Source of the DNA: a virus
Virus record (IMG/VR): IMGVR_UViG_3300032782_000001
Location: 52,404 to 116,403 of that record
Strand: one strand, 5' to 3'
DNA: 64,000 nucleotides
Shown here: in pieces, positions 49,316 to 50,486 of the stretch
Numbering within the stretch: position 1 is the stretch's first letter
Layout: each line of letters begins with the position of its first letter
Position numbers and translations under genes: made by a program
Notes under the pieces: model-generated
What the model was told of the DNA's origin: nothing
The model's database searches: none
Seen by the model: only the letters and a program-made list of their open reading frames with translations

Positions 49316-50486
49316 ATGAAGACGCACGTGAACGTTGGGACTATTGGCCATGTCGACCACGGCAAGACCACCCTGACGGCAGCAATTTTGGCGGTGCAGG
49401 CTCATCACGGTCTGGCGAAGACCAAGAGCTACGCTGACATCGCCAAGGGCGGAACGGTTCGGGACGAGACCAAGACGGTGACTATCAACGTATCGCATGT
49501 CGAGTACGAGTCGGCCTCGCGCCACTATGCTCACATCGACTGCCCCGGTCACGCCGACTACATCAAGAACATGATCACGGGAGCCGCACAGATGGATGGT
49601 GCGATTCTCTTGGTCGACGGCAGTCAAGGTCCGCAGCATCAGACGAAAGAGCACATCCTTCTCGCCCGCCAGGTGGGAGTGGATAAGATCGTGGTGTTCA
49701 TCAACAAGGTGGACATTTCCGATCCGGAGCTCTTGGACCTGGTGGTTTTGGAGGCTGTTGAGCGCTTGGAGCTTCACGGCTACAAGAACTCGCCGGTCAT
49801 CCGGGGCTCGGCTCTGAAGGCTTTAAGGGATCCTGCAAACGAGGGTGCCTGCATTCAGGAGCTGGTTGCAGCGATGGATTCGCATTTCCCGGAGCCGAAA
49901 CGTAACTACGACGCTCCCTTCATGATGCCTCTCGAAGGCGTCCACACCATTCCCGGTCGTGGAACCGTCGTCACGGGTCGCATCGAACGCGGTGTGCTCA
50001 AACTCGGTTCGACGGTGGAAATCGTCGGATTCGTTGATGCGGACTCCAAGCCACGTCAAGTTGTCGTCACGGGCATTCAGATGTTCCACAAGGACCAGCC
50101 TGAGGCTCGTGCCGGCGAGAACTGTGGCCTGCTTCTTCGCGGCGTCGGTCGCGACGAAGTGGTCCGGGGCCAGGTGCTCATCGCTCCTGGTTCGGTGAAG
50201 TCTCACGTGAAGGCTCAGGCCGAGCTTTTCGTGATTCCGAAAGAGGAAGGTGGCCGACACACGCCGATCTACCCGGGGTACAAACCCCAATTTTTTTTTC
50301 GGAACGACGGACGTCACGGGGTCTCTCGTAGATCTCTGTGGTCAAGACATGATCACCCCCGGTGATCATGCCAAGGTGAGCCTCGAGCTCATGAAGCCCG
50401 TCGGGATGGAGCCTGGAATGAGGTTCGCTGTCCGTGAAGGCAGCAAGACTGTCGGCGCCGGGGTTATCCTCAGCGTCGAGGGTTAA
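49316..50486 (+). CDS. tuf: elongation factor Tu-like GTPase, reading frame broken by a 1-nt insertion near 50293
   Basis: [51 protein letters not shown] and NKVD motifs; the C-terminal ...[12 protein letters not shown]...[12 protein letters not shown] continues in the +1 frame (ORF 50250..50486). Confidence 0.7.

Follow-up and report, generated by a model that had tools for sequence, protein, structure and literature searches.

A tuf gene of a huge phage divided between two reading frames at a run of nine T's

The tuf gene and its setting in a phage tRNA array

The window, by which we mean the whole 64-kb stretch of viral DNA that was analysed, contains at positions 49316-50486 of the plus strand a gene for EF-Tu that is complete but split across two reading frames. 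The gene consists of the following parts:

49316..50365, plus strand: tuf ORF-a, frame 0, covering the G domain, domain 2 and the first part of domain 3
50291..50299, plus strand: a homopolymer of nine T's (T9), the site of the frame change, within the site sequence CAA TTT TTT TTT CGG AAC GAC
50298..50486, plus strand: tuf ORF-b, +1 frame, covering the remainder of domain 3 (F/GTTDVTGS...) and ending in the stop codon TAA at 50484-50486

Read from the ATG at 49316, frame 0 includes the DCPGHADY and NKVD motifs and comprises 328 genuine EF-Tu codons, the last of which spell YKPQFFF; these are followed by 21 out-of-frame codons and the stop codon TGA at 50363-50365. The last 61 codons, which encode most of domain 3, sit in the +1 frame, and neither part of the gene contains any further stop or indel. 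Removal of one T yields a joined protein of 389 amino acids that matches EF-Tu chains in the PDB end to end (residues 2-388, E = 1e-141 to 1e-136), a match that is far beyond chance. When scored as a joined version with Arg at the junction, the sequence reaches 522.8 bits against a cut-off of 522.4 for NCBIfam TIGR00485, a small margin, and 541 bits against a cut-off of 449 for PRK00049 (residues 2-387). The GTPase motifs G1 (GHVDHGKT), G3 (DCPGH) and G4 (NKxD, here NKVD) are all present in frame 0 and align to EF-Tu structures. The joined sequence thus has the three domains of a full-length EF-Tu (domains 1, 2 and 3; TIGR00485 / PF00009 + PF03144 + PF03143), but not in a single uninterrupted ORF, as domain 3 goes on in the +1 frame past T9. 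The two-frame reading and the end-to-end match bear out the initial annotation, made from the sequence alone, which had described a full-length tuf split by one nucleotide.

That annotation had also placed the start at the ATG at 49316, and two observations support this position: the proteins of relatives L001-L003 and L119/P0001 likewise start at this point, with MKTHVNVG, and non-triplet indels relative to the nearest relative, L119, lie 5′ of the ATG. The public annotation of ORF-a is a product of 383 amino acids that starts at 49214 (P0040). Exact protein look-ups of the 349-residue product from ATG 49316 and of the 393-residue product from TTG 49184 gave no match.

The phage, at ~436 kb, belongs to the huge-phage class (>200 kb). 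Orthologous tuf genes (68-86% identity) come from viral contigs of 250-620 kb in IMG/VR; the closest EF-Tu found among 185,579 species-representative genomes of bacteria and archaea reaches only 61% identity. Together with the position of the gene in a tRNA array, these findings support the view, already taken in the initial annotation, that this EF-Tu is phage-encoded; the window also encodes RtcB (matching phrog_1075), a collagen-like tail fibre and a GIY-YIG endonuclease, along with 44-47 tRNAs. Further genes specify a nicotinate phosphoribosyltransferase (Pfam NAPRTase) and an M16 peptidase. The features that define this setting are as follows:

36585-39500: tail-fibre-like ORF, collagen-like (phrog_6320, 6e-36)
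45088..62762, plus strand: tRNA array enclosing tuf, with 44 tRNAs from ARAGORN and 3 from Rfam, ~47 in all
47452-47519, 58807-58887 and 59947-60027: the extra Rfam tRNA matches beyond ARAGORN
49089..49167, plus strand: tRNA-Asp(gtc), directly 5′ of tuf; the same neighbour is found in L002, L005 and L206
50499..50541, plus strand: very stable stem-loop directly 3′ of the tuf stop codon (-31 kcal/mol, z = -5.4), enclosing the ATG at 50521 of the endonuclease gene
50521..51330, plus strand: homing endonuclease gene of the GIY-YIG type, an insertion that separates tuf from the tRNA that follows

The placement of tuf inside a tRNA array on the same strand recurs in all nine relatives scanned (L001, L002, L003, L005, L007, L008, L030, L200 and L206), in several of them right after tRNA-Asp(gtc). 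In E. coli, the tufB operon has the order thrU-tyrU-glyT-thrT-tufB. The window gene resembles tufB in layout, lying directly 3′ of tRNA genes on the same strand; it differs in its position partway through an array of ~47 tRNA genes, among which homing endonuclease genes and a group I intron are scattered. The GIY-YIG gene is absent from L119, in which tRNA-Trp follows 34 nt after tuf and homology to the window ends exactly at the tuf stop codon. The window EF-Tu carries one extra C-terminal Gly relative to L119.

Other features of the region were recorded alongside these. Within the array, the group I intron occupies 45647-45877 on the plus strand (Rfam RF00028, 76.6 bits, E = 3.5e-18) and is followed by an ORF of 180 amino acids (45941-46483) that ends where tRNA-Asn (46486) begins. 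A direct repeat of ~400 bp (76% identity, offset 160 bp) occupies 46850-47411, between tRNA-Thr and tRNA-Glu. Near the far end of the array, a histidyl-tRNA-synthetase-like ORF (60942-61559, plus strand) of ~201-205 amino acids, roughly half the normal length, adjoins an HNH endonuclease ORF (60192-60704) and an Rv2179c-like exonuclease ORF (61696-62262). Outside the array, an ORF of 868 amino acids on the minus strand (30600-33206) contains major-vault-protein shoulder and repeat domains (PF11978, 4e-29; PF17795, 1e-10), which are unusual in a phage genome. Among the relatives, L200 (ENA ERZ25039562 contig_5379, 3.72 Mb) has a phage-clade tuf (83% identity, FFFG) that is flanked by 18 tRNAs and accompanied by RtcB and an HNH endonuclease; the contig may represent an element that is integrated or very large, a chimera of long reads or a cellular carrier.

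The frame break, its ancestral sequence and its age

T9 is the sole homopolymer of at least eight bases in the 64-kb window, which otherwise contains 13 runs of six and one of seven. A one-base change in the run of seven does not fuse ORFs, and homopolymers elsewhere in the window do not look as if they interrupt a gene. The initial annotation had correctly placed the loss of frame after YKPQFFF, although its account lacked the T9 run, which is the key to the mechanism. Two different one-base repairs reopen the ORF: deletion of an A yields FFF-R-TTDVTG, whereas deletion of one T places a Gly after FFF. The T-deleted version is identical at the junction to L001, L203 and L206, and a Gly (GGN codon) follows QFFF, within FFFG(T/P/A)T, in 16/16 close relatives checked (68-98% amino acid identity). 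In L119, the nearest of these (98% amino acid identity, dS 0.52), the site reads CAG TTC TTC TTC GGA ACG ACG, whose final ten bases, C GGA ACG ACG, are identical in the window. The triplets TTC TTC TTC also occupy the site in L203-L206 (89-90% identity) and likewise in relatives at 88-98%; overall, the relatives read TTC TTC TTC or TTC TTT TTT, with no more than six consecutive T's. This alignment points to Gly as the ancestral residue and to a surplus base in the T run, and it indicates that this base is a T of the run (or the C that follows) and not the A.

The frame break was then sought across homologues. None of ~194 tuf loci from IMG/VR, JGI metagenomes and GTDB genomes is frameshifted at the site, and the longest T run among them is six. 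The best 120 proteins in a database of 5.8 billion clusters are encoded by a single ORF, are ~388 amino acids long and keep domain 3, with the sole exception of P0040, which is the product of the window tuf itself. The two-frame arrangement is therefore not conserved among homologues (0/~194 loci, and none of the best 120 proteins bar its own product). An exact-pattern scan for the site in JGI metagenome contigs and IMG/VR, with T8 to T11 allowed, returned no other copy of the strain, and no second independent sample with the window's strain was found. Among GenBank phages there was no near match to window positions 40000-60000; matches to tuf in GenBank were only partial (~70% identity over 6-19% of the gene), some of them in records named as bacteria. 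As no homologue has more than six T's at the site, the frameshift is, as far as these sequences indicate, a singleton that has no conserved recoding signal. Comparison with homologues, which the initial annotation had suggested as a check, thus shows all of them to be intact and to lack a long T run, and this outcome speaks against either reading, conserved programmed frameshift or old pseudogene.

The age of the break was assessed from the substitutions on either side of it. Relative to L119, dN/dS is 0.015 over the 328 codons before the break and 0.038 over the 60 codons after it. When changes are polarised with two outgroups, L203 and L206, the window lineage has accumulated 5 synonymous and 0 non-synonymous changes 3′ of the break, and both downstream amino acid differences are assigned to L119. 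Under neutrality, ~16 non-synonymous changes would be expected per 5 synonymous ones (~137 non-synonymous and 43 synonymous sites). The tuf clade is under strong purifying selection, and the absence of non-synonymous changes downstream means that the break is very recent, that the downstream frame is still translated or that the break is not real. If it is very recent, it occupies less than about a fifth of the terminal branch.

Candidate explanations for the nine-T run

The initial annotation had named a sequencing error, a recent pseudogene and a +1 frameshift site as possible readings, and these were the right candidates to weigh. The explanation that we favour, at a probability of roughly 0.55, is that the window holds a huge-phage tuf in which a run of eight T's slipped recently to nine, giving a leaky ‘pseudo-pseudogene’ and not a conserved recoding device. 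To the anatomy, singleton status, recency and slip-prone sequence of the gene, all of which were observed directly, this explanation adds two parts that we infer: the presence of T9 in the DNA and the rescue of expression by slippage. In the repaired gene, Phe is encoded by TTT only at two positions, both in the run, and by TTC at the other eight. Two synonymous TTC>TTT transitions, together with CAG>CAA in the conserved Q-F-F-F-G, would have given CAA TTT TTT TTC and with it a T8 run; slippage by a single T, from T8 to T9, would then have moved the last 61 codons into the +1 frame. Six codons at the site hold five synonymous differences, a degree of clustering that is expected by chance (permutation P = 0.85), so no special mechanism is needed. 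The possibility that the cluster records a special event, for instance co-conversion with the adjacent homing endonuclease gene, was considered and rejected on the same permutation result.

A point against the favoured explanation is that the breakage, in a dominant genotype, of a gene with dN/dS of ~0.02 is a priori unlikely. The chief competitor is an artefact of sequencing or consensus. According to this alternative, the true sequence is T8 (CAA TTT TTT TTC GGA), the gene is an intact, ordinary phage tuf, and the extra T arose by homopolymer miscalling, PCR stutter or the choice of a graph path. The break falls in the longest homopolymer of the window, where indel errors classically arise; no decay is seen in the downstream frame, which has 0 non-synonymous changes; and all relatives are intact. 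The assemblies that agree on T9 probably share reads as well. ENA contig k141_4065419 of ERZ27256589 (MEGAHIT, 102 kb) is 100% identical to the window over 32836-55855, T9 included; it departs from the window at 55856 and follows a different assembly path, and the window beyond 55203 is found on a second contig of ERZ27256589 (337 kb). The truncated P0040, of 383 amino acids, is on record from both JGI and ENA, the longest contig being one of 436,316 bp from which the window probably comes. In the Logan assembly of SRR8881007, one contig is identical to the window and ends before tuf at window position 47205, within the direct repeat described above, and a second breaks inside tuf at ~49565, in the conserved DCPGHADY region, such that the T run is uncovered. 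The T9 count therefore probably rests on assemblies from one read set (SRR8881007 / ERZ27256589 / JGI).

Against an artefact, the k141_ names denote MEGAHIT, which suggests short, Illumina-type reads, and with such reads a 9-mer would seldom alter the consensus at the coverage that underlies contigs of 100-436 kb. Moreover, two assemblies agree on T9, and no other homopolymer in the window looks broken. On this evidence a real T9 is favoured over an artefact by roughly 2:1, and we regard the artefact as a serious but less probable account of the data. Separately, k141_4065419 leaves the window at 55856, at the 3′ end of a tRNA-Glu(ctc) gene that is the first of an adjacent pair, after which the contig (L036, 16643-19271) enters an ORF for a reverse transcriptase of 429 amino acids (RVT_1); the divergence represents a variant with an inserted retroelement or else a fork in the assembly at the duplicated tRNA.

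If T9 is present in the DNA, as the favoured explanation holds, most translation would yield a truncated protein. Domain 3 of EF-Tu is needed for contacts with tRNA and EF-Ts, and the frame-0 product, which lacks nearly all of it, is probably inactive. The lesion is probably leaky, however. RNA-polymerase slippage on the nine-T tract could give U8 or U11 transcripts and hence some full-length EF-Tu: a U8 transcript would restore the native FFFG, and a U11 transcript, with two T's added, would encode FFFFG, with one extra Phe. Bacterial RNA polymerase is liable to slip on runs of nine A or T, and extensions from eight to nine create ‘pseudo pseudogenes’ that still give a full-length product (PMC1088944). 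For E. coli RNA polymerase, slippage requires at least seven T's and poly(T) is preferred, whereas T7 RNA polymerase slips more readily (PMC6260861). The run in the window is a sense-strand run of nine T's in coding sequence, at which a change of -1 nt, or by inference +2 nt, restores the frame.

A lesser contribution to full-length EF-Tu could come from +1 slippage of the ribosome at the end of the run:

50297..50303, plus strand: UUU_CGG_A, a UUU_Y tetranucleotide at which tRNA-Phe(GAA) in the P site could re-pair +1 on UUC, the next codon then being GGA (Gly); predicted

In bacteria, +1 shifting tends to occur at sequences of the form UUU_Ynn; influenza A has UCC_UUU_CGU as its frameshift cassette (PMC5009743). 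P-site re-pairing is feasible at UUU_C, as tRNA-Phe(GAA), which the phage itself encodes (47914-47990), pairs with both UUU and UUC. The codon in the A site is not a slow one: CGG accounts for 19% of Arg codons (10.4 per 1000 among 7,511 window codons), which rules out a hungry-codon argument, and a tRNA-Arg(CCG) is phage-encoded at 56570. No Shine-Dalgarno-like stimulator at the right spacing was found near the site. Shifting by the ribosome is consequently expected to be weak. The sequence 5′ of the run was also considered as an intrinsic terminator (GGGGUACAAACCCC then U9), and this candidate was rejected: its hairpin, GGGGU-ACAA-ACCCC (-8.5 kcal/mol), has z = -0.9 and is no better than shuffled sequence, and a scan gave fewer such motifs than shuffles.

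The same slip-prone elements might instead be the object of selection, with T9 kept as a recoding or contingency switch because slippage sets the ratio of truncated to full-length EF-Tu or makes expression phase-variable. In favour of such a switch, two known slip-prone motifs, 9T and UUU_C, are combined at one site, the downstream frame is perfectly preserved and a weak hairpin, the one described above, lies ahead of the U run. However, the run length of a purposeful slippage site is expected to be kept among homologues (PMC1088944), and here the homologue maximum is six T's: 0/~194 loci have a frameshift or a longer run at the site, and the best 120 database matches are single-ORF. The hairpin is no more stable than shuffled sequence, the synonymous cluster at the site is ordinary and CGG is not a slow codon in this phage. 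We therefore consider a selected switch unlikely. The more specific proposal of a genuine T9 that the phage lineage retains as a slippage-dependent attenuator or phase switch, with mostly truncated product of domains 1-2 and a tunable full-length minority, is if anything slightly more doubtful; were it true, it would give phages their first described case of a translation factor controlled by recoding.

Two further alternatives fare worse. The initial annotation had attributed the break to an extra A, which would place the surplus base after CGG and make the ancestral sequence ...QFFFRTTDVTG, with the Arg that is canonical in bacteria; deletion of the A does reopen the ORF, and Arg occupies that residue in 74/77 cellular EF-Tu loci sampled. 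This version would demand both an insertion of A and a Gly>Arg change that happened to create CGG; it runs against the Gly (GGN) of all 16 close relatives, is contradicted by the alignment with L119, whose TTC GGA ACG ACG matches the window base for base, and appears highly improbable, the frame being restored by T9 -> T8. An old, decaying pseudogene of a gene that the phage no longer needs, to which the interrupted ORF and the adjacent insertion of a homing endonuclease gene might point, is excluded by the lack of additional stops or indels, by dN/dS of 0.015-0.04 and by the 0 non-synonymous against 5 synonymous window-lineage changes downstream.

Relation to known systems and significance for the phage clade

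Genes for elongation factors G, Tu and Ts are known from huge phages (Al-Shayeb et al. 2020, Nature 578:425; PMC7162821), so a phage-encoded EF-Tu has already been described, and the finding belongs to two known kinds, the translation-factor genes of huge phages and the homopolymer ‘pseudo-pseudogenes’. Like the former (PMC7162821), the window gene encodes a full-length EF-Tu in a phage of >200 kb with dozens of tRNAs and other translation genes; unlike them, it has a one-nucleotide frame change and belongs to a clade with a non-canonical switch I and a Gly in place of the Arg of bacterial QFYFR. Like the latter (Baranov, Hammer, Zhou, Gesteland, Atkins 2005; PMC1088944), it would have arisen by extension of an A/T run from an 8-mer to a 9-mer, has single-ORF homologues and would have its ORF restored by -1 or +2 at the RNA level. 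Those cases come from bacterial chromosomes and the illustrated one involves a run of A's, whereas the present case is a run of T's in a phage gene and is known from sequence alone.

Two other systems offer partial parallels. The +1 sites of the UUU_Y type, such as Yersinia YopN-TyeA and the UCC_UUU_CGU of influenza A (PMC5009743), share with the window a P-site UUU before a pyrimidine and a frame-0 Arg codon, CGN, in the A site; the window site differs from these in that it is not conserved, CGG is not rare and the cognate tRNA-Arg(CCG) is encoded, and its shift is a predicted one. Programmed transcriptional slippage in Thermus thermophilus dnaX and in IS elements (PMC1088944) likewise involves nine identical A/T bases in the sense strand of a coding sequence, but there homologues keep the length of the run and each of the two products has a function, whereas the window run is unique to one genome.

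Two sequence traits of the phage genes lie outside the frame break. In the clade L001-L007, switch I (window 49430-49480, residues ~40-56) is non-canonical; the near-universal form is IDxAPEEKARGITIN, and the canonical switch I is retained in the more distant phage relatives L008 and L030. The window clade has KTVTI(N) where the bacterial switch I has RGITI(N). The Gly59-Ile60 bond that is cut by the Lit protease lies in RGITI, here KTVTI. The residue after QF(F/Y)F (GGA, 50300-50302 in the repaired frame), which we equate with E. coli R333, counting from G316 and Q329, two sites of kirromycin resistance, is Gly in 19/32 IMG/VR tuf loci; Arg is found there in 74/77 GTDB genome loci and 74/79 metagenome loci. 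In these samples the Gly looks like a trait enriched in phages.

For annotation, the gene should be recorded as a tuf with a homopolymer frameshift at T9 (repair FFFG), and neither as a truncated GTPase nor as a conserved recoding site. It provides a natural example of how synonymous drift from TTC to TTT in a conserved FFF motif may lead to a hypermutable, slippage-prone tract, and, if T9 is real, a phage example of a ‘pseudo-pseudogene’. The wider clade merits more attention than the frameshift itself: its members carry tuf in huge-phage tRNA arrays, under a dN/dS of ~0.02, with an altered switch I and an Arg->Gly replacement in QFYFR.
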